DNA from: Escherichia coli
GTDB lineage: Bacteria; Pseudomonadota; Gammaproteobacteria; Enterobacterales; Enterobacteriaceae
Assembly (NCBI RefSeq): GCF_048403405.1
Contig: NZ_CP183129.1
DNA: 64,000 nucleotides
Reading direction: 5' to 3' (one strand)
Shown here: in pieces, positions 14,806 to 26,902 of the stretch
How the letters are laid out: every line of letters starts with the position of its first letter
Position numbering within the stretch: position 1 is the first letter of the stretch
The notes under the pieces: generated by a model
The model's database searches: none
The model's input: the letters and a program-made list of their open reading frames with translations, nothing else
What the model was told of the DNA's origin: nothing
Position numbers and translations under genes: made by a program

Positions 14806-14913
14806 ACTCAAAATCAGACGCCAGAACAAATATTCTGGCGTCTCAGAGAAAAGAATCTTATTAATTCTCTGTTACTCTATAACTTCTTAATCACTTCATT
14901 GATGGTATTTTAT

Positions 14914-15755: not shown

Positions 15756-15914
15756 TAATCCGAACACTGTCTGTTGTTCACTTTTTCAGGCGTCAGGCCC
15801 CCTTTCTGATGATGAAGCCTGACGCCATATTACCGGAGATATGACAGAGTGAAGATCAATATCACTCCCCTGTTAAAAGATCCTTGTCGTCTCAGGTAAA
15901 ATACATGATTAATA

Positions 15915-16799
15915 TCAATCATGTATTTTTACAGCAAGACAACCACGAACAAATTCAGGATTAAAATGTTTTACCGACTCCCCAACATAACCCAAATCAA
16001 GCGAACTAATTTGTGCCATTTCTTTCTCTGTCAGTGAGAAATCCCAGATAGCAAAATTTTCTTCGATACGCTGTTGATGTGTCGATTTCGGAATAACGAC
16101 CACTCCCCGTTGAATATTCCAACGCAGAATGACTTGAGAAATCGATTTTTGATGGGCATCTGCAATACTCTGAAGCAGATTATTTTCAAAGGGTTTATGT
16201 CGTCCACCACCTAACGGAGCCCATGCTTCAGGCTGCACGTTATAATACTTCATGGTTGCCAGCGCCTCTGGTTGGGCAAAATAGGGATGCAACTCGACCT
16301 GGTTGACCATCGGTTTAACTCTTACCGTTTCACAAAAGTTCGCCAGAACATGAGGATAGAAATTGGAAACCCCAATTGCTTTTAATTTGCCCTCTTCATA
16401 GGCATCTTCGAGTGCACGCCACGCACTGAAATAATCGCGCATAGCCTGGTGCAATAAATAGAGGTCGAAGTATTCTAGTCCCGATTTTTTTAATGATGCT
16501 TCAATACCTGCTTTTGCCGTATCCTGATTCAACATATCCTGCACCCACAATTTAGACGTTATAAATAACTCATCTCGGGTACATAAACCTTCAGATATGG
16601 CTTCACGAACGGCTTCACCGACGGCATCTTCATTACCGTATACCGCTGCAGTGTCGATGAGTCGATAACCCGTGCGGATAGCATTCAACACTGACTGTTT
16701 GCACACGTCTTTATCGGTAACCTGAAAAACACCAAATCCCATCATCGGCATTTTCAGATTGTTACTTAATACGTAAAATTCCACTGTCAGTCCCTCCAT
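15915..16799 (-). CDS. aldo-keto reductase (DkgA/YvgN-like)
   Basis: 294-aa ORF with AKR motifs ([24 protein letters not shown]); paralogous to ORF 22828..23679; a GTG start 15 nt downstream is possible. Confidence 0.75.
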   Translation of the reverse strand: MEGLTVEFYVLSNNLKMPMMGFGVFQVTDKDVCKQSVLNAIRTGYRLIDTAAVYGNEDAVGEAVREAISEGLCTRDELFITSKLWVQDMLNQDTAKAGIEASLKKSGLEYFDLYLLHQAMRDYFSAWRALEDAYEEGKLKAIGVSNFYPHVLANFCETVRVKPMVNQVELHPYFAQPEALATMKYYNVQPEAWAPLGGGRHKPFENNLLQSIADAHQKSISQVILRWNIQRGVVVIPKSTHQQRIEENFAIWDFSLTEKEMAQISSLDLGYVGESVKHFNPEFVRGCLAVKIHD

Positions 16800-17031
16800 T
16801 AGGTATGAACAATGAGTCTACGTTAAAACGTAACCTCAAATTAGTATGTGGATTTTGATATCACTTATGCAAAAAATTCATTAATAATGTAGGACTGAAA
16901 CCTCTCTATTTTTGGGGCAATGAAGCAGACGCTATCAGTGCTTTTGCCTTGGGACTTGCTGTTTTTGATACACTTAAGGCCCAGGACATAACGAAAATGT
17001 GCGATATGACAAAGAATTAACGGAGAATGTG

Positions 17032-17889
17032 ATGATCAGGCAGAAGATTCTACAGCAGCTCCTGGAGTGGATTGAGTGCAATCTTGAGCACCCTATTTCA
17101 ATCGAAGATATCGCACAGAAATCTGGCTACAGCAGACGCAACATCCAGCTTCTGTTCCGAAATTTCATGCATGTGCCTTTGGGAGAATACATTCGCAAAC
17201 GAAGGCTTTGTCGTGCCGCCATTCTTGTCCGACTCACCGCGAAATCTATGCTTGATATTGCACTCTCTTTACATTTTGACTCACAGCAGTCATTCAGCCG
17301 CGAATTTAAAAAGTTATTCGGCTGCTCTCCCCGTGAATACCGCCACCGTGATTATTGGGATCTCGCAAATATCTTCCCTTCTTTTTTAATACGTCAACAG
17401 CAAAAGACGGAGTGTAGATTAGTCAACTTTCCTGAGACACCTATTTTTGGCAATTCATTTAAATATGATATTGAAGTATCGAATAAATCACCGGATGAAG
17501 AAGTCAAACTGCGACGTCATCATTTAGCCAGATGTATGAAGAATTTTAAGACGGATATCTATTTCGTCTCCACATTCGAACCGTCAACAAAATCGGTCGA
17601 TTTGCTCACAGTTGAAACTTTTTCCGGTACGGTATGCAAACAAACCGATTCAGAGATGTCGAAAGAGTGGACAATTAACCGAGGACTGTATGCCTCTTTC
17701 CGCTATGAAGGTGAGTGGGAGCACTACCCTGAATGGGCGCGAAACCTCTATCTGATGGAATTACCTGCCAGGGGGTTAGCCAGAGTGAACGGCAGTGATA
17801 TTGAGCGATTTTATTACAATGAAAACTTCGTCGAAATTGATAGCAATAACATTGTTTGCGAAATTTTTATCCCCGTTCGCCCGGTTTAG
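17032..17889 (+). CDS. ykgA: AraC-family regulator with C-terminal effector-binding domain, YkgA-like
   Basis: ORF 16999(GTG)..17889; ATG 17032 with GGAG RBS; N-terminal AraC HTH (SIEDIAQKSGYSRRNIQLLFR). Confidence 0.65.
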   Translation: MIRQKILQQLLEWIECNLEHPISIEDIAQKSGYSRRNIQLLFRNFMHVPLGEYIRKRRLCRAAILVRLTAKSMLDIALSLHFDSQQSFSREFKKLFGCSPREYRHRDYWDLANIFPSFLIRQQQKTECRLVNFPETPIFGNSFKYDIEVSNKSPDEEVKLRRHHLARCMKNFKTDIYFVSTFEPSTKSVDLLTVETFSGTVCKQTDSEMSKEWTINRGLYASFRYEGEWEHYPEWARNLYLMELPARGLARVNGSDIERFYYNENFVEIDSNNIVCEIFIPVRPV

Positions 17890-17946
17890 CTGTAGCGATG
17901 TTTACATGAATTTATAACGAGACTACTGTCAGGCAATTCAATAAAT

Positions 17947-17980
17947 AATGGCGTTGAAGATGTCAACGCCATTATTGTTT
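17947..17980. terminator. bidirectional intrinsic terminator between ykgA and fdeC
   Basis: Perfect hairpin AATGGCGTTGA-agatg-TCAACGCCATT flanked by A-rich (upstream) and T-rich (downstream) tracts, between convergent genes. Confidence 0.55.
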
Positions 17981-18009: not shown

Positions 18010-21000
18010 TTACTTCATCGCCTCCTCGCCCTTTGCCGTATCGGCATCCACCGCGGTTATGGTCACCGTCACTGGCTTCATTTCGTACCCGCCATAGGTC
18101 AGGGCGTTAAATGTGAACGTATAGACACCAGGCTTGCTGGTACTAAATGTACGCGTGATTTTTCCGCTCACGAAATGGTCATTTTTCGACGGCAGGAATT
18201 GATAATCCTTCTCCGTCACTCCTTCCGGAGCCTCAATGTCGACCCACACATTCCCCCCAACAGGGTTATTTGCCGAGAACAGGGTAACCTCCAGCTTCGC
18301 AGTCGATTTCCCATCCGCCACCAGCGATTGCACATCAGATGATGCGGTGAGCTCCGCGTTTTTATCATCCGCGACGAATTTAGATTCGGCAGTTTTCGTT
18401 GATACCTGACCGTTGGTCTGACTCACTTGCGCCTTGAGTGTGTATGTCGCCGCAACAGTAGTGGTAGCGGTGAAAATAGCCTGCCCTTGCTCATTCGTTG
18501 TCGCAGTGCCATTCGGTTCCAGGTTTAACGAAGCCGGGCTGGCAGTCAGCGTCACGTCGCTATCTTTCAACAGGTTGTTATTGGCATCAGTCACCGTAAC
18601 TTTATACGTCTGTTTGGCTTTGCCGTCCGCCAGTGCATAGATGCCAATCACCTCAATACTGGAAACGGTTGCGGTAGCCTTATCGGCTACAAACGTTATA
18701 GTCTGCGCATCTGAAGGCTGGTCATTTCCTGCCGACGCCGTGATCTCATAGGTTCCGGCAGTCACGGAAACCACCTGCAACTCTGCTTTCCCCTCATCGT
18801 TGGCTTTCACCCAGACATTATCGCCAGTAAGCGGCTTGACACCCCGGGGCAGATTAAAGGTCACCAGAGTGCCTGGAACAGGGTTACCGTTTTTATCCTC
18901 AACGGTCGCCGTCAGCGTAAAGGCATCTTTGCCGTTTGCCACTTTTTGAACGGCGGTGTCTACCTGCAGGTTTGCCTGACCGGTGCTGGCATCCGCGTTG
19001 AATTTCACCGTGACCGTCTTCTGAGAGTTTTTCACCGCGGCCGCGATTTCAAGTTCCCCTGCAACGGTTGATATCAACTCAATATCCGCTTTACCTGCCG
19101 CATTGGTTGTTACTGTATTCCCCGTCTTGCTAGTCACACCCTGCGGTAAAGTCAGCGTAACTTCTTGCCCCTGCAACGGGTTACCATAGCTGTCCACGAC
19201 GGTCAGGGTTACCTGGTTAGCAGACTGTCCATTTGCCAGTTGGTTATTCACCTTCACCGCCATATCACTGATCACTGCCCGGGAAGCGTCGCCTGCAACA
19301 TTCAGCACCAGTGGCTGAGCAACGGCATTTTGGCCGTTCACTCGCGGCATCACAGACAACTGACCCGCGGCAGATCCCAGCGTTAAGGTCGCCACGTAGA
19401 CCCCATTACCTTTCTCTGTCCAGTTTCCTGCTGAAGGACGCTCACTCCCCGTGCTGGCGGCACCGCTAAACACTGGTGCATCTGGCTTCAGCCCGGTGAC
19501 CGAGTTCCCATACGCATCCTTCACGGTGAAGGTGAGTTCCGTCGTCGTTTTGACGGTCGGAGCCTTATTGTCCGCAACAAGCGTAGAGTTCGCTGATGAC
19601 ATCTCTCCGGCGATGACCGTCAACTGTGCGGCTTCGGTGGCTGCTGGCTGGCCGTTGAAGAGCGGCATGACGCGAAGCTCGCCCGTCTTTCCGCCTGTAG
19701 TCAACGTAGCAACATAGGAACCGTCACCTTTTTCGGTCCAACTGGAAACGGTCGCCCCTTCAGAGGCGGTCCCCGTCAAACTTGCCGACAACGAAAGACC
19801 ACTGATAGCGTTGCCATGTGCATCTTTCGCCACCAACGTCACGGTTGTGCTTTCGCCGGCTTTTACGTGATCTTCCGCGACAGAGACTTTCGACTGGTTT
19901 GAAGATAACGCATCAGCCACCACGGTTACTTTTGCCGCATTTGCTGCCGCATCCTGTCCATTTAGCTTCGGCATAACTTCTAATTCACCCGCCGTAGAGC
20001 CGAGAGTAATCTGCGCAGTCCACGTCCCATCACCATTATTTGTCCAGCCAGATGCCGTAGAACCAACAGCAGCGGCACCCGCTAATGACGGCGCTTCCGG
20101 CGTGAGGCTGGTCACAGGGTTGTCATTGGCATCTTTTGTCGACCAGATTGCCGTAAGCGTACCGCCGACCACCGGTTTATCAGGATTCAGGGTGATGGAC
20201 GAATGTGCTGCATCAAGCGGCCCGGCAACAAACTTCAGCGTTTGTTGTAATGTGCCCAGCTGATACTGCTCGCTGAAGGCGCGCAAAACAACGTTTCCGG
20301 CACGGGTCGAAGAAACCGTGGCGCTGTAAACCCCTGGTTTTATTTCCGAAATGGCACCAACGGTAACACCATTAGTGTCTTGCGGAACAAGTCGCAGGCG
20401 GCTGGCTTCTCCCGTCACCGGATTACCCTCGGAGTCCACCGCAGTCAGCGTCAGCGTGTAGGCTTGCTGACCATCAGCAACCACGTCACCTGACGGCTCG
20501 TTAGCGCTCAGGGTGGAGTTTGCCACATCCATCATCGTGGCCCGCAGTTCTGCAGTGACGGTTTTGCTCATGCCATCAACGCTAACAGTAATCGTTGCCT
20601 CACCTGACTGCGTTCCGGTCGTAAAGACAGACTGATACACCCCTGCTTCAGTTTCGGTGAACTCACCCAGTGTTGGCTTTGCCTGTGATTTAGTGGCCTT
20701 CAGGGAACGAGTCACAATATTTCCAGCCGGTTTGAAGGTTAGTTCAGTCTTGATCTGCTCCTTCATGCCCGTGACTGGCTGGCCCTCGGCGTCGCGCAGA
20801 GACAGCACCAGCGGCTTTTGCTCATTACCGTTAGCAAGCATTTGAATACGGCTCTGACCGTCAAGCGTTAACGCCGTGCGATCGGCGCTCATACCAGCTC
20901 CGGTAATAACCACTTCTGTCTGCACACGTTTCGAGGCATTACCTTTGTTATCGTAGGCAACTGCTGAAATCGCATAATAATTGTCTTTGCCTGGACGGTA

Positions 21001-22263
21001 AGCCGGGAGCGTTACTTGCCACTGACTACCCTGACCGGTAATTTTGCCACCTTCAGCCAGTAATGACGGCGCTTCCCATTGCACATTTTTCAGTCCGTGA
21101 GTTGCTTTGCTGACCACAAGCCCCAGGGAAAGTGTCTGACCGCCCTTGCCTTCAATACGCTCAGGCAGAGCAATACGAATCACTTCAGATTTGCGGTACT
21201 CAAGAACGATGTTGTTATTACGCTCAACCAGGTCATAGCGGCTGCCTGCCAGCATTCGACGCTCGCGAATGCTGTCTGTATCGAGTTGTTTTTCCAGAGG
21301 TTCGCCAATCCGATAATTAACTTCCAGGCCAAAGCGAGTGTCATTCTCACCACTCTTGCCCTGCTTATGCCCGGCACTCAGGGTCAGAAGAGGCACTGGC
21401 GTGTAATTCACTTCAGCGGTAATCGCATGTGGATCTTTCTGGCGTTTATCTTTACCAAACAGCCCGACTTCATCGCCATAATACTGTTCATACATCAGGC
21501 TTGCGCCAAGCTGCGGCCAGGCAGGTAAATAGCCCTCAGCACGAATATCCCAGCCATTCGCCGGGCGTTCCTGATAATCCTCAACATCCGGTGATTTTTT
21601 CCAGCCAGAAGCCCGGATATAACCATTGGCGCTCAGTTTCAAATAATCACGCCAGTATTCCGCACCAACACCAATGCGGGTATGACTACGGGATAAATCA
21701 TGATCGATAAAAGTATTCACCCCCGCCATCCAGTCATTTCCTGAAAAATGACGCCAGCCAAAACCAATATTTGACTGAGTACGATCGTCGGTACGATGTA
21801 TTGCCCCCTGAGTGAACAACATATTTGTCGGCGTATCATAAATAGGATAAAGCATTTCCAGCGAAGAATCCTTCAGCGAGAAATCTTTATCGACATTCAG
21901 TTTGACGCGCGCTGTACCATATTTTCCGAGCCACTCCTGTATTTCCTGGTTAGCTTTAGCGGTGGCTATTCCGGTAATAAAATTACGTGTCGCATCGCTA
22001 TCTGGCTGACTGCTTAAAAATGTCCCGGCATTTGCGGCAAACGACGCGACATTTTTCTCCACGTTATTATCACCAGTTACCGTAGTATTTCCCATGCTCA
22101 ACCGTGGCTGAACCGCATGCTGCGCACGTGCCGCCATTACTGGGGTAAAGGTGACAGCGAGTGGAAAAAGAACCTGAACAGAGATATTTGCCCACGCCAC
22201 GCAGCGGGCCAGAACTGAATAACGAAATCGTGGTTGTTTATGACCTGTTTTATAACGTGACAT
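18010..22263 (-). CDS. fdeC: intimin/invasin-family adhesin FdeC (EaeH), full length
   Basis: Uninterrupted 1417-aa ORF; N-terminal beta-barrel region then many repeated Ig-like segments rich in T/V/A/G. Confidence 0.85.
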   Translation of the reverse strand: MSRYKTGHKQPRFRYSVLARCVAWANISVQVLFPLAVTFTPVMAARAQHAVQPRLSMGNTTVTGDNNVEKNVASFAANAGTFLSSQPDSDATRNFITGIATAKANQEIQEWLGKYGTARVKLNVDKDFSLKDSSLEMLYPIYDTPTNMLFTQGAIHRTDDRTQSNIGFGWRHFSGNDWMAGVNTFIDHDLSRSHTRIGVGAEYWRDYLKLSANGYIRASGWKKSPDVEDYQERPANGWDIRAEGYLPAWPQLGASLMYEQYYGDEVGLFGKDKRQKDPHAITAEVNYTPVPLLTLSAGHKQGKSGENDTRFGLEVNYRIGEPLEKQLDTDSIRERRMLAGSRYDLVERNNNIVLEYRKSEVIRIALPERIEGKGGQTLSLGLVVSKATHGLKNVQWEAPSLLAEGGKITGQGSQWQVTLPAYRPGKDNYYAISAVAYDNKGNASKRVQTEVVITGAGMSADRTALTLDGQSRIQMLANGNEQKPLVLSLRDAEGQPVTGMKEQIKTELTFKPAGNIVTRSLKATKSQAKPTLGEFTETEAGVYQSVFTTGTQSGEATITVSVDGMSKTVTAELRATMMDVANSTLSANEPSGDVVADGQQAYTLTLTAVDSEGNPVTGEASRLRLVPQDTNGVTVGAISEIKPGVYSATVSSTRAGNVVLRAFSEQYQLGTLQQTLKFVAGPLDAAHSSITLNPDKPVVGGTLTAIWSTKDANDNPVTSLTPEAPSLAGAAAVGSTASGWTNNGDGTWTAQITLGSTAGELEVMPKLNGQDAAANAAKVTVVADALSSNQSKVSVAEDHVKAGESTTVTLVAKDAHGNAISGLSLSASLTGTASEGATVSSWTEKGDGSYVATLTTGGKTGELRVMPLFNGQPAATEAAQLTVIAGEMSSANSTLVADNKAPTVKTTTELTFTVKDAYGNSVTGLKPDAPVFSGAASTGSERPSAGNWTEKGNGVYVATLTLGSAAGQLSVMPRVNGQNAVAQPLVLNVAGDASRAVISDMAVKVNNQLANGQSANQVTLTVVDSYGNPLQGQEVTLTLPQGVTSKTGNTVTTNAAGKADIELISTVAGELEIAAAVKNSQKTVTVKFNADASTGQANLQVDTAVQKVANGKDAFTLTATVEDKNGNPVPGTLVTFNLPRGVKPLTGDNVWVKANDEGKAELQVVSVTAGTYEITASAGNDQPSDAQTITFVADKATATVSSIEVIGIYALADGKAKQTYKVTVTDANNNLLKDSDVTLTASPASLNLEPNGTATTNEQGQAIFTATTTVAATYTLKAQVSQTNGQVSTKTAESKFVADDKNAELTASSDVQSLVADGKSTAKLEVTLFSANNPVGGNVWVDIEAPEGVTEKDYQFLPSKNDHFVSGKITRTFSTSKPGVYTFTFNALTYGGYEMKPVTVTITAVDADTAKGEEAMK

Positions 22264-22812
22264 TGAGATAATTTCCTGATGAACGAATTAACGAACATAG
22301 GCAGACACAAATAGTGGCGTCTGCTTGTCAGAAAAACCGGGAAATCCCCGATTTCCTTTTCCGCAGAAAAGGAAATACCTTTATGTAAGAAAGTACACCG
22401 CCACCTAATATATCCAGTGTCTGTAGCCACTCATCAGGTGGTTGGGCGCGGGATTATATTTTTATTTATGGGTAAAAATTTAGCTTTTTGTGCAAGTTAT
22501 TAAATAGATACCTAAGTTATATTTTTACTCTGCGGACAGTGAATAATTCATTATTCAGAGTGAATAATAATGGCCTGCCTTTAATTAACAACTATTGGAA
22601 ATACGTCGAAGTAGGTATATACGCCAGGATAAACCGATATATTTTTTATGGATATTCATTTTCCTTTATCGGACTGTAAATTGCGGGGATATCGAACTTG
22701 CACTACTCATCGCAACACTCAAACAGATTTATGAATTTCGTTCATAACCCCTGACAAATCCTGCCGTCTAATCGAGCTCTTCTCTTTACGTTATGCTTCT
22801 CATGAACGATAA

Positions 22813-25679
<2,867 letters not shown>

Positions 25680-25819: not shown

Positions 25820-26746
25820 TTAACTTTCTATTTTTACTCTTTTCTCCACCATAAAATCAATAAAAGCACGAACTTTAGAGGGCATTCTCACCCGTGATGA
25901 AACATATATATAAAATCCAGGAAATGAAACGGCCCAATCCTCAAGAATCGGCTGTAACTTGCCCGCATTGATATGTTCAGCGATTGCAAAATCCAGATGT
26001 TGAATGATACCCGTTCCATTCAGCGCCATTCGTATCATGCTTTCGTCATCATTAGAAATATACTTACCTGAAACCTCTATTTCGAACTCTTCATTACCCC
26101 CCACAACATTAGAAAACTCCCATGCAGAGAGTGCACCGCTACTTTTATGCCGCAACCGAAGGCAATTATGGTTACTCAGTTCCTGAGGCGTTTCAGGAAT
26201 ACCGTGTTCTTTTAAATAATCTGGCGATGCCACAGTAACCAGTTTAATAAGCGGAGAAACAGGAACGGCAGTCATATGCTCATCCAGTCCTTGCTCAAGA
26301 CGTATGCCCACATCACAGCCGTCCGCAATAATGTTAGATAAACCGTCATCCATAATGAGTTCTATCTTTGTTTTGGGGTAACGAGTAAGAAACTCGCCAA
26401 TATGAGGCTCAACAAGCATCCGTGCTGCAACACGGGAGGAATTTATTCTCAACAGGCCTGTAGGTTCAAGTTGGGTATCACCAACATCTTTCAAAGCATC
26501 ATCAATTTGCCCCAAAGCCGACACCAGCACTTCATACAGACGCTGTCCTTCCTCAGTAAGCGACATATTGCGGGTCGTACGGTATATCAGCTTGGTGTTA
26601 AGACGTTCCTCAAGAGATTTTAAATTCTGGGACAATGCGGCCCGTGTAATACCCATTTCAGAAGCGGCTCTGGAAAAACTGCCGGCACGAACAATAAGCG
26701 CAAACCAGGCAAGAGAAGGCAAAATTGAAGGCTCTATTTTCATCAT
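25820..26746 (-). CDS. LysR-family transcriptional regulator
   Basis: ORF 25820..26809; ATG 26746 with AAGG RBS; LysR HTH (FSRAASEMGITRAALSQNLKSLEERL); divergent from hydrolase gene at 26903. Confidence 0.75.
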   Translation of the reverse strand: MMKIEPSILPSLAWFALIVRAGSFSRAASEMGITRAALSQNLKSLEERLNTKLIYRTTRNMSLTEEGQRLYEVLVSALGQIDDALKDVGDTQLEPTGLLRINSSRVAARMLVEPHIGEFLTRYPKTKIELIMDDGLSNIIADGCDVGIRLEQGLDEHMTAVPVSPLIKLVTVASPDYLKEHGIPETPQELSNHNCLRLRHKSSGALSAWEFSNVVGGNEEFEIEVSGKYISNDDESMIRMALNGTGIIQHLDFAIAEHINAGKLQPILEDWAVSFPGFYIYVSSRVRMPSKVRAFIDFMVEKRVKIES

Positions 26747-26902
26747 TGTAAACCTTAACTTAACACTGTGATAGATATTAGACCATTGATGATAACCAAT
26801 ACAAGTCATACTATTACGCCGTTCTCGATATGAACACGAATGCCAGTTGCGGATAATAGAAATGATATTTAAATCTGTTTAGGCAAATCCCCGGAGCTTG
26901 AA

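Follow-up and report, generated by a model that had tools for sequence, protein, structure and literature searches.

The adhesin gene fdeC of Escherichia coli is separated from the divergent first gene of an aldo/keto reductase (AKR) operon by an intergenic region of 564 bp (37.6% GC). The region occupies positions 22264-22827 of the stretch of DNA analyzed here, 64,000 nucleotides (64 kb) of contig NZ_CP183129.1 (assembly GCF_048403405.1), which we call the window, and contains no annotated feature. An initial annotation drew attention to two overlapping palindromes and to three copies of an 8-mer, TGAATAAT, and placed them in the control region of the two divergent genes, a placement that our analysis bears out.

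The adhesin FdeC, widely conserved in E. coli and a candidate for vaccines, is expressed under tight restriction: it is silenced by H-NS and is seen at 39 °C or above or on host contact. Repression by H-NS and expression at ≥39 °C are described for fdeC (as cited in PMC11143625), and in K-12 the locus of eaeH, as fdeC is called there, is a silenced protein-occupancy domain (PMC4191405). No description of the cis elements that control fdeC was found in the literature accessible to the analysis.

In this study, we examine the repeats of the intergenic region, their conservation, and their possible roles in fdeC expression. The setting is ordinary, and two different things had been brought together under one finding: a pair of leader hairpins and an upstream repeat. 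Our preferred reading, to which we assign a probability of roughly 0.45, is that the palindromes represent conserved RNA stem-loops (B and T) in the fdeC leader and that the TGAATAAT cluster is an ancestral repeat with at most an accessory role.

Materials and Methods

The comparative set comprised 87 Escherichia sequences (47 haplotypes), drawn from diverse RefSeq E. coli, from three close orthologous loci, and from 76 metagenome contigs anchored on an invariant 25-mer spanning the Shine-Dalgarno (SD) sequence and ATG. The three orthologous loci, which belong to Escherichia sp. E1V33, E. whittamii, and the divergent 'E. coli' E69, were the only close ones in 100,044 species genomes. The upstream regions of distant FdeC homologues (at most 57% identity; Citrobacter and others) are without similarity to this one, and hence they offer no deeper phylogenetic footprint. 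Chance expectations were obtained from 2000 dinucleotide-preserving shuffles of the intergenic region, and a consensus scan against shuffles covered 16 factor motifs. Terminator-type scores (d) follow the formula of d'Aubenton-Carafa et al. 1990, into which modern energy parameters were entered, and only their relative ranks are trustworthy.

Results and Discussion

Inverted repeats of the intergenic region

The intergenic region is identical (100%) to that of E. coli strain CFSAN061763 and is present, at 94-100% identity, in 5047 of 5426 complete E. coli genomes. In K-12, the reductase genes are deleted from ~22813, and both eaeH and ykgA are disrupted by the insertion sequence IS3.

The motifs reported at first are real and are not products of chance. 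Their coordinates and sequences are exact (GGAAATC-CCC-GATTTCC at 22340-22356; the TGAATAAT copies as in Table 1), and a search for perfect inverted repeats (arms ≥7 nt, spacers ≤6 nt) returned 8 entries, corresponding to 5 distinct repeats, against a shuffle mean of 0.42 entries; none of the 2000 shuffles equalled the observed number. In the same shuffles an inverted repeat with 11-bp arms has a probability of ~0.001, and an 8-mer occurring three times within 40 bp one of ~0.0015, the triple being the sole such case in the window. Both overlapping palindromes are present as described, although the second is longer than had been stated, and their reading as factor sites is not the obvious one; as set out below, we prefer to see them as RNA stem-loops.

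Stem-loops B and T of the predicted fdeC leader

Extended to its full length, the second palindrome is a perfect 11+4+11 inverted repeat, hairpin B (Table 1), which in sense RNA reads AUUUCCUUUUC-UGCG-GAAAAGGAAAU, an 11-bp stem closed by a 4-nt loop. Ten of the 11 pairs are kept in all 16 distinct haplotypes, with 99.4% pairing; the stem changes consist of one U·G and one mismatch, nothing else, and the loop varies at two positions (G to A, C to U).

The first palindrome has a different origin. It falls on hairpin T, whose stem on the plus strand is AAACCGGG / CCCG(G/A)TTT (22334-41 / 22347-54) and whose loop occurs in six variants. Changes in the T stem are almost all C to U, at four positions, such that the sense strand keeps G·U pairs and the other strand is left with A·C. 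The loop at 22342-22346 is AAATC in the window against GATTT in the majority (plus strand; GAUUU against AAAUC in sense RNA), so that through three clustered differences the window carries the exact reverse complement of the majority loop on an unchanged stem. The exact 45-mer 22332-22376 is found in 396 of 5036 matching E. coli records (~8%), with 2 intermediates and 3370 records that differ at 3-4 positions; within the mixed sample, 16 of the 87 sequences have the inverted loop. Palindrome 1 (22340-22356) exists because the T loop is inverted in this lineage and is, on this comparison of alleles, a strain-specific by-product of a single hairpin-loop inversion. In one further genome (L091, E. 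coli FDAARGOS_943) the IS4-like element ISEc60 is inserted inside the plus-strand 5' arm of hairpin T, equivalent to 22338/22339, which separates fdeC from the remaining intergenic region, the latter still adjoining the AKR gene.

B and T are predicted to fold in every allele, and the 151-nt sense leader has a z-score of -4.06. Pairing of hairpin T reaches 98.4% in the sense and 92.2% in the antisense direction; for a third predicted stem-loop, hairpin C, the figures are 98.4% and 87.5%. For B the values are reversed (93.2% against 99.4%) solely because its terminal column is shared with T. The shared position 22351 is polymorphic, G/A on the plus strand and C/U on the fdeC-sense strand. With the U allele, which is that of the window and of the K-12 type, hairpin B gains a pair and the core of T is weakened from -8.1 to -5.8 kcal/mol; on these modeled energies, the polymorphism may be a natural tuning of the leader element.

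On the minus strand T has the sequence features of an intrinsic terminator, namely a stem of 5-8 bp, a 5-nt loop, and the tract UUUUUCU, with an A-run upstream. The majority allele scores d = +8.0, which ranks it with the 8 best of 2558 tiles of the window, the only tiles to attain d ≥ 0; in the window and K-12 alleles, where the U·G pair is present, d falls to -6.8. Sense scored above antisense in all alleles. As a control, the probable terminator between the convergent ykgA and fdeC genes gave d = -2.8, to which the window and K-12 alleles are comparable.

The remaining parts of the predicted leader vary in their conservation. Hairpin C contains the sole compensatory double change found, G-C to A-U in the E69 lineage, along with changes of G·U to G-C or A-U, and U·G. 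Hairpin H0 is invariant in E. coli; four of its pairs are broken in E69, and its support is weak for that reason. The U-tract downstream of T also forms the predicted anti-SD strand (22328-22335). An Rfam scan of both strands, with E up to 10, produced a single meaningless rRNA match, and the small open reading frames of the leader were just out-of-frame mechanical ones, among which a credible leader peptide was not found.

Predicted fdeC promoter and YkgA

Upstream of the hairpins, a perfect TATAAT on the fdeC-sense strand implies a predicted start at ~22446 and a 5' untranslated region (UTR) of ~183 nt, and it is preceded at 19 bp by a marbox-like box. The block CTTGCACAAAAAGCTAAATT (22477-22496, sense strand), which covers the box, is invariant in 86 of the 87 sequences, and the block AAATAAAAATATAAT, which ends in the TATAAT, in all 87; the 19-bp spacer from marbox to -10 occurs in 13 sequence variants of fixed length. 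The marbox match is the sole one in 64 kb, where 1.47 are expected by chance (P~0.01 within the intergenic region). The composite pattern of marbox core, N18-20, and TATAAT, which was defined post hoc, after the site had been seen, has a single occurrence in 64 kb and none in 100 shuffles. The box is in forward orientation and centered at about -40 from the predicted, unmapped start, which places it within the class II marbox limits of -36 to -55 (PMC12052159). The genome screen in that study was limited to sites within 200 bp of a start codon. The MarA screen and chromatin immunoprecipitation supplements do not mention fdeC or eaeH, an H-NS paper on transcription start sites has nothing on either name, and no paper was found in the literature that ties fdeC mechanistically to SoxS.

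The limits of homology point to the same position. To the E69 sequence, all 5031 E. coli genomes align solely over the fdeC-proximal 231 bp (query positions 321-551), and in a second divergent sequence of the sample, L161, identity drops from 95-100% to 45-55% at ~22497. Since similarity to both E69 and L161 ends at the upstream edge of the marbox, a module of ~233 bp appears to be linked to fdeC, a pattern suggestive of a recombination boundary at the very edge of the promoter. The E69 type is represented by E69 itself (L004), L106, and L128, which carry unrelated sequence upstream of 22496-22500, where L161 has 45-70% identity; this E69-type upstream region is absent from all 5426 complete RefSeq E. 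coli genomes.

Independent support comes from a published experiment. A reporter from avian pathogenic E. coli (APEC), described as fdeC with promoter, gave 42 °C-dependent expression of FdeC-HA (PMC11143625). It begins at primer P0184, which we mapped to 22513-22484, and the fragment therefore contains the marbox, the -10 element, and the leader, but not the TGAATAAT cluster. Taken together, a marbox-type promoter upstream of the hairpins, with its start unmapped, is a well-supported prediction. Two other promoter assignments were rejected: the sole sigma-70 match (-35 at 22591-86, -10 at 22569-64, overlapping copy 3 of the cluster) is below chance expectation and its -35 is not conserved, which disqualifies it as the main promoter, and in a sigma-32 reading of CTTGCAC...ACCCATAA the CCCAT part falls within the hypervariable spacer.

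A candidate activator is encoded next to fdeC. YkgA aligns over its full length with Rob (E 1e-38), and also with SoxS (5e-27) and MarA (1e-17); as judged from these alignments, it is a full-length Rob paralogue with Rob architecture. Its recognition helix 3 reads RRNIQLL against KW(H/Y)LQRM in MarA, SoxS, and Rob, and helix 6 is conserved. The targets of YkgA are not known (PMC2064960). The initial annotation had named ykgA as a regulator to be tested, and the marbox at 22478-22496, a site outside its coordinates, is an unexpected and possible lead for that suggestion.

Proposed regulation of fdeC

Our reading starts from the sequence itself, the non-randomness of its repeats, their pattern of conservation, the predicted folds, and the position of these elements relative to the expression-competent fragment; from these we infer a start site, a transcript that includes B and T, its termination or attenuation, and any binding of factors. 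Transcription would begin at the predicted promoter, formed by the marbox-like box, the 19-bp spacer, and the TATAAT, and would yield an mRNA leader of ~183 nt that carries, from the minus strand, H0, B, T with its U-tract, C, and the SD sequence. The palindromes at 22334-22376 would then be the DNA image of the adjacent RNA stem-loops B and T. Together with B and C, T and its UUUUUCU tract would most likely act after initiation, as a leader attenuator that causes premature termination or pausing ~70 nt before the start codon, and/or by folding the leader around the ribosome-binding site (RBS). Such an effect would be added to H-NS silencing and would help to keep fdeC off at ≤37 °C.

Several points weigh against this interpretation, beginning with the chance expectation for the marbox and the post hoc definition of the composite promoter pattern already mentioned. 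The APEC reporter vector carries an rpsM promoter, from which read-through is possible. Hairpin B overlaps hairpin T by just 3-4 nt, so that there is no clear antiterminator alternative. T is weak as a terminator, with 5-6 G+C-rich pairs and 5 U and with the window and K-12 alleles scoring below zero; a terminator scan flags T on the minus strand in the window allele but not in the O157 allele. Published tables of K-12 RNA 3' ends have no entry for eaeH, which is silent under laboratory conditions. The palindromes fold equally well on either strand, and the strand asymmetry of the variant types, 8 compatible only with sense and 3 only with antisense pairing (binomial P~0.11), is no more than suggestive. 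Covariation is likewise not significant: 98.4% of cells are paired, with one compensatory pair and several one-sided changes compatible with G·U, and shuffle controls were not exceeded in a test that is underpowered.

The TGAATAAT cluster

What the initial annotation had described as an imperfect palindrome plus a third half-site does consist of three copies, but these pair up as two perfect inverted repeats that overlap, 8-2-8 (22540-57) and 8-3-8 (22550-68), and equally a direct repeat of AGTGAATAAT at 22538-47 and 22559-68 with 21-bp spacing. The cluster lies at about -95 to -122 from the predicted fdeC start and ~260-290 bp from the AKR start codon, in the AT-richest stretch of the region (26-31% GC over 22450-22650). 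Parsimony makes the perfect triple, which O157, UTI89, and further lineages carry, the ancestral form, and it is older than the split of E. coli, E. whittamii, and E1V33.

The best placed of the alternatives, though doubtful in our view, is that the cluster is a genuine operator or activator site of an unnamed regulator that acts on fdeC or on the divergent AKR operon. In its most likely form, a protein, AraC/XylS-like or response-regulator-like and possibly YkgA, would bind the two direct copies of AGTGAATAA, which are two helical turns apart. The perfect 8-mers are indeed phased at 10, 11, and 21 bp, the triple is unique in 64 kb, and the outer direct copies are nearly invariant. Across 44 haplotypes, no invariant run within 22497-22620 is longer than copy 1 with its flank, CAGTGAATA. 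When L161 is included, the outer copies have 0.20 events/bp against 0.73-0.78 in the flanks, and L161 itself retains the cluster at 75-80% identity against 45-55% on the fdeC-proximal side. Opposed to this is a substitution density in the cluster equal to the intergenic mean (0.21 against 0.19/bp in the first sample, 14 genomes), the fdeC-proximal 190 bp having 0.07-0.08. The middle arm has acquired at least four independent substitutions (ACTATTCA, ATTATTAA, ATTATCCA, ATTATTTA) in its TTCA core. The spacers of the two palindromes differ, 2 against 3 bp, so that one dimer cannot fit both, and neither palindrome has a second copy in the window. The perfect triple is kept in 33 of the 87 sequences, and the exact 45-mer of the cluster in 806 of 4938 RefSeq records. 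The E69-type lineage is without the cluster. Conservation, which the initial annotation had named as a touchstone of its motif, is thus divided between a freely variable middle arm, together with one lineage that does without the cluster, and two outer direct copies that are well kept. Genomes with the K-12-type AKR deletion carry T22551C and T22568C within the cluster.

No factor can be named for the site, as the initial annotation had judged. None of the 16 consensus motifs (Zur, IHF, Fis, H-NS, CRP, FNR, Lrp, and the rest) matched the cluster better than chance, and this includes Fur, H-NS, IHF, Fis, and ArgR, which had been proposed for such a scan. The cluster has 4/10 mismatches to the H-NS motif TCGATAAATT, for which the regional best has 2 (P=0.70). 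LysR-type boxes are T-N11-A dyads ~65 bp upstream of the target promoter; a box of this kind was rejected, the ATTATTCA-GAG-TGAATAAT symmetry giving T-N9-A, A-N11-T, and T-N13-A. The APEC fragment does not include the cluster and still gives 42 °C-dependent FdeC, so that temperature-dependent expression from a plasmid does not require it; at most, the cluster is an accessory site for the binding of a protein. It is unlikely to be a palindromic operator. On its pattern of change it is an old, weakly constrained repeat, probably in an accessory role.

Somewhat less probable than an operator is the absence of any function, in which the repeats, and mainly the TGAATAAT cluster, would have arisen by quasi-palindrome template switching and drift in AT-rich, H-NS-coated DNA. 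An event of the template-switch type, the T loop inversion, is documented 200 bp away, the middle arm evolves like its surroundings, and one lineage as well as the plasmid construct dispense with the cluster. The persistence of the triple since before the split of the three Escherichia lineages speaks against mere drift, as do the outer copies, an island of conservation in L161, and the low chance probability of the triple.

RNA thermometer and duplex DNA as alternatives

A fourU-type RNA thermometer, an improbable alternative, would place the control of translation in the same leader: the U-tract UUUUCUGA (22335-22328) would pair with the RBS UCAGGAAA at ≤37 °C and melt at 39-42 °C, which would account for the way FdeC responds to temperature. 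Both the minimum-energy fold of the 151-nt leader and the consensus fold of the alignment include the 8-bp anti-SD helix, and all 8 pairs are invariant in every sequence, which by the same token gives them no covariation support. FdeC appears only at ≥39 °C in enterohemorrhagic E. coli (EHEC) and at 42 °C in APEC, from a fragment that contains the leader (PMC11143625), and a fourU thermometer is described for EHEC chuA (PMC9002310). The folding predictions run the other way: the helix has a probability at 37 °C of 0.10 in the window allele, 0.11 in K-12, 0.25 in E69, and 0.49 in O157, and SD accessibility in the window allele is flat from 25 to 45 °C (0.45, 0.46, 0.44). H-NS alone can, moreover, thermoregulate. 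On these models, we rank a terminator-like attenuator or structural leader element first and keep the fourU thermometer as its rival.

B and T might also act as DNA, whether as palindromic operators (a repressor roadblock downstream of the promoter), as cruciforms, or as H-NS-bridging sites, which we consider a shade less probable than the thermometer. The sequence of B is invariant and not co-varying, the hexamers (A/G)TTTCC / GGAAAT recur four times between 22273 and 22376, and B taken alone is slightly better paired as antisense or DNA, a difference that comes from its terminal pair alone. Perfect 11-bp arms are, however, atypical of dimeric factor sites, and the T loop is freely inverted and substituted while its stem is kept and changes G·U-compatibly on one strand, behavior that fits a folded strand and not a duplex recognition site. 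The comparison of variants leads us to favor the RNA reading of B and T over the DNA reading, without regarding it as proven.

Iron or arginine control through a Fur box or a pair of ARG boxes can be set aside as highly improbable: GAATAAT resembles the Fur hexamer, TGAAT is an ARG-box half-site, and 21 bp is the spacing of tandem ARG boxes, but against the consensus forms the Fur-like resemblance seen initially fails (9/19 mismatches to GATAATGATAATCATTATC and 6/14 to the 7-1-7 form TGATAATnATTATCA, every shuffle having a better best match), the ARG pair wnTGAATwwwwATTCAnw with its 3-bp gap reaches a best of 3/16 mismatches (P=0.28), neither box having its ATTCA half, and a Zur box has 11/23.

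Other features of the locus

Table 1. Coordinates in the window of the genes and sequence elements discussed in the text.
Feature	Position	Strand	Remarks
fdeC	18010-22263	-	annotated; inverse-autotransporter adhesin gene
Shine-Dalgarno sequence of fdeC, AGGAAA	22272-22277	-	read from sequence; ATG at 22263-22261
Hairpin C, GCAGACGC / GUGUCUGC	22301-22324	-	predicted fold; 8 bp including one G·U
U-tract, UUUUUCU	22330-22336	-	directly 3' of the G+C core of T; part-overlaps A-U end of T stem
Hairpin T, AAA(C/U)CGGG / CCCGGUUU	22334-22354	-	conserved stem; variable 5-nt loop
Hairpin B, ATTTCCTTTTC-CGCA-GAAAAGGAAAT	22351-22376	-	perfect 11+4+11 inverted repeat; palindrome 2, extended
Hairpin H0, CCACCUGAU...AUUAGGUGG	22401-22441	-	predicted at 5' end of leader
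Predicted fdeC -10, TATAAT	22453-22458	-	perfect; invariant in 87/87
Marbox-like box, CTTGCACAAAAAGCTAAAT	22478-22496	-	1 mismatch to AYnGCACnnWnnRYYAAAY; forward orientation
TGAATAAT cluster	22540-47 (+), 22550-57 (-, inverted), 22561-68 (+)		three copies; perfect 8-mers
AKR gene	22828-23679	+	first of AKR operon; divergent from fdeC
ykgA	16999-17889		convergent with fdeC; intact, 296 aa; AraC-type helix-turn-helix (HTH_18) and GyrI-like domain
LysR-type regulator genes (two)	24726-25661 and 25820-26809		

A further perfect palindrome, TTATGAA-TTTCG-TTCATAA at 22729-22747, lies ~80-100 bp upstream of the AKR start codon and encloses, at 22731-22743, the T-N11-A-type core TGAA-N5-TTCA. Its arms are unchanged in all sampled Escherichia except for the terminal base 22747 in two strains, and a base of the central spacer varies. 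As a candidate for control of the AKR operon by one of the two LysR-type regulators of Table 1, this site would be better than the TGAATAAT cluster. In K-12-type genomes (L002), the whole AKR/LysR/hydrolase cluster is deleted, from a point ~15 bp upstream of the AKR start codon. A perfect palindrome with 14-bp arms, AATAATGGCGTTGA-AGATG-TCAACGCCATTATT at 17944-17976, separates the convergent genes ykgA (3' end at 17889) and fdeC (3' end at 18010); it is probably the bidirectional terminator of both, and it served as the control for the terminator score. Perfect palindromes at 15898-15929 (13-bp arms) and 14816-14843 (11-bp arms) lie one at the 3' end of an AKR gene at 15915-16799 and the other nearby.

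Implications

The outcome is a testable map: an fdeC-linked module of 233 bp in which the marbox-like box and the -10 element are invariant, and a leader of three hairpins, one of them terminator-like. The TGAATAAT triple, though eye-catching, should not be prioritized as the fdeC operator, and the marbox may offer the Rob paralogue YkgA a possible first target. A bolder proposal, which we regard as rather unlikely, is that two undescribed layers switch fdeC on, a class II marbox promoter and a structured leader. If it were true, an activator of the MarA/SoxS/Rob family, with Rob, SoxS, MarA, and the orphan neighbor YkgA as candidates, would counter H-NS at the promoter; in the leader, the terminator-like hairpin and U-tract would serve for attenuation or temperature sensing, perhaps with release of a short RNA derived from the 5' UTR, and the strength of the leader element would be tuned between E. 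coli lineages by natural alleles (the loop inversion and C/U at 22351). Should the predictions fail, the region would be an AT-rich, H-NS-bound spacer with ordinary palindromes.

Comparison with known systems

With Fur and ARG-box arrays, the cluster shares AT-rich half-sites (GAATAAT, TGAAT) that are helically phased; its spacing and second half-sites do not fit such arrays, and the resemblance is no better than that of shuffles. In the manner of fourU thermometers such as that of EHEC chuA (PMC9002310), a U-run of the fdeC leader pairs with an AGGA-type RBS in the predicted fold and the gene is temperature-induced, but the fdeC helix is long-range, encloses hairpin C, has a low ensemble probability in several alleles, and is not predicted to melt in the window allele.

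The predicted promoter resembles the class II marbox promoters of MarA, SoxS, and Rob. Its box has one mismatch to the 19-mer, is off in 1 of 10 specified bases of the 15-mer gcannwwntgnnaaa, and overlaps the -35 position of a promoter with a good -10 and no recognizable -35. It differs in lying 215-233 bp from the ATG, beyond the published 200-bp filter, and in that MarA, SoxS, Rob, and YkgA are not reported to bind or regulate it.

Hairpin-loop inversions by intramolecular template switching at quasi-palindromes are known from E. coli mutagenesis and from chloroplast non-coding DNA. The T loop differs from these as a natural polymorphism inferred from population data, and it agrees with them in being exactly reverse-complemented on an intact stem, with intermediates virtually absent among the 5036 records.

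Leader terminators act as attenuators in the H-NS-silenced bgl operon. Many 3' ends within 5' UTRs have also been mapped in E. coli (PMC7815308). Compared with such 5'-leader attenuators, T has a short stem core and merely 5 U, the overlap of B and T is limited to 3-4 nt, and at fdeC no antiterminator protein, ribonucleic antiterminator (RAT)-like element, or leader peptide was identified. The likeness lies in a hairpin with a G+C core that is flanked, on the sense strand, by an A-run on its 5' side and a U-run on its 3' side, in its position between a predicted promoter and the coding sequence of a gene under tight silencing, and in an upstream hairpin, B, that overlaps the 5' arm of T.

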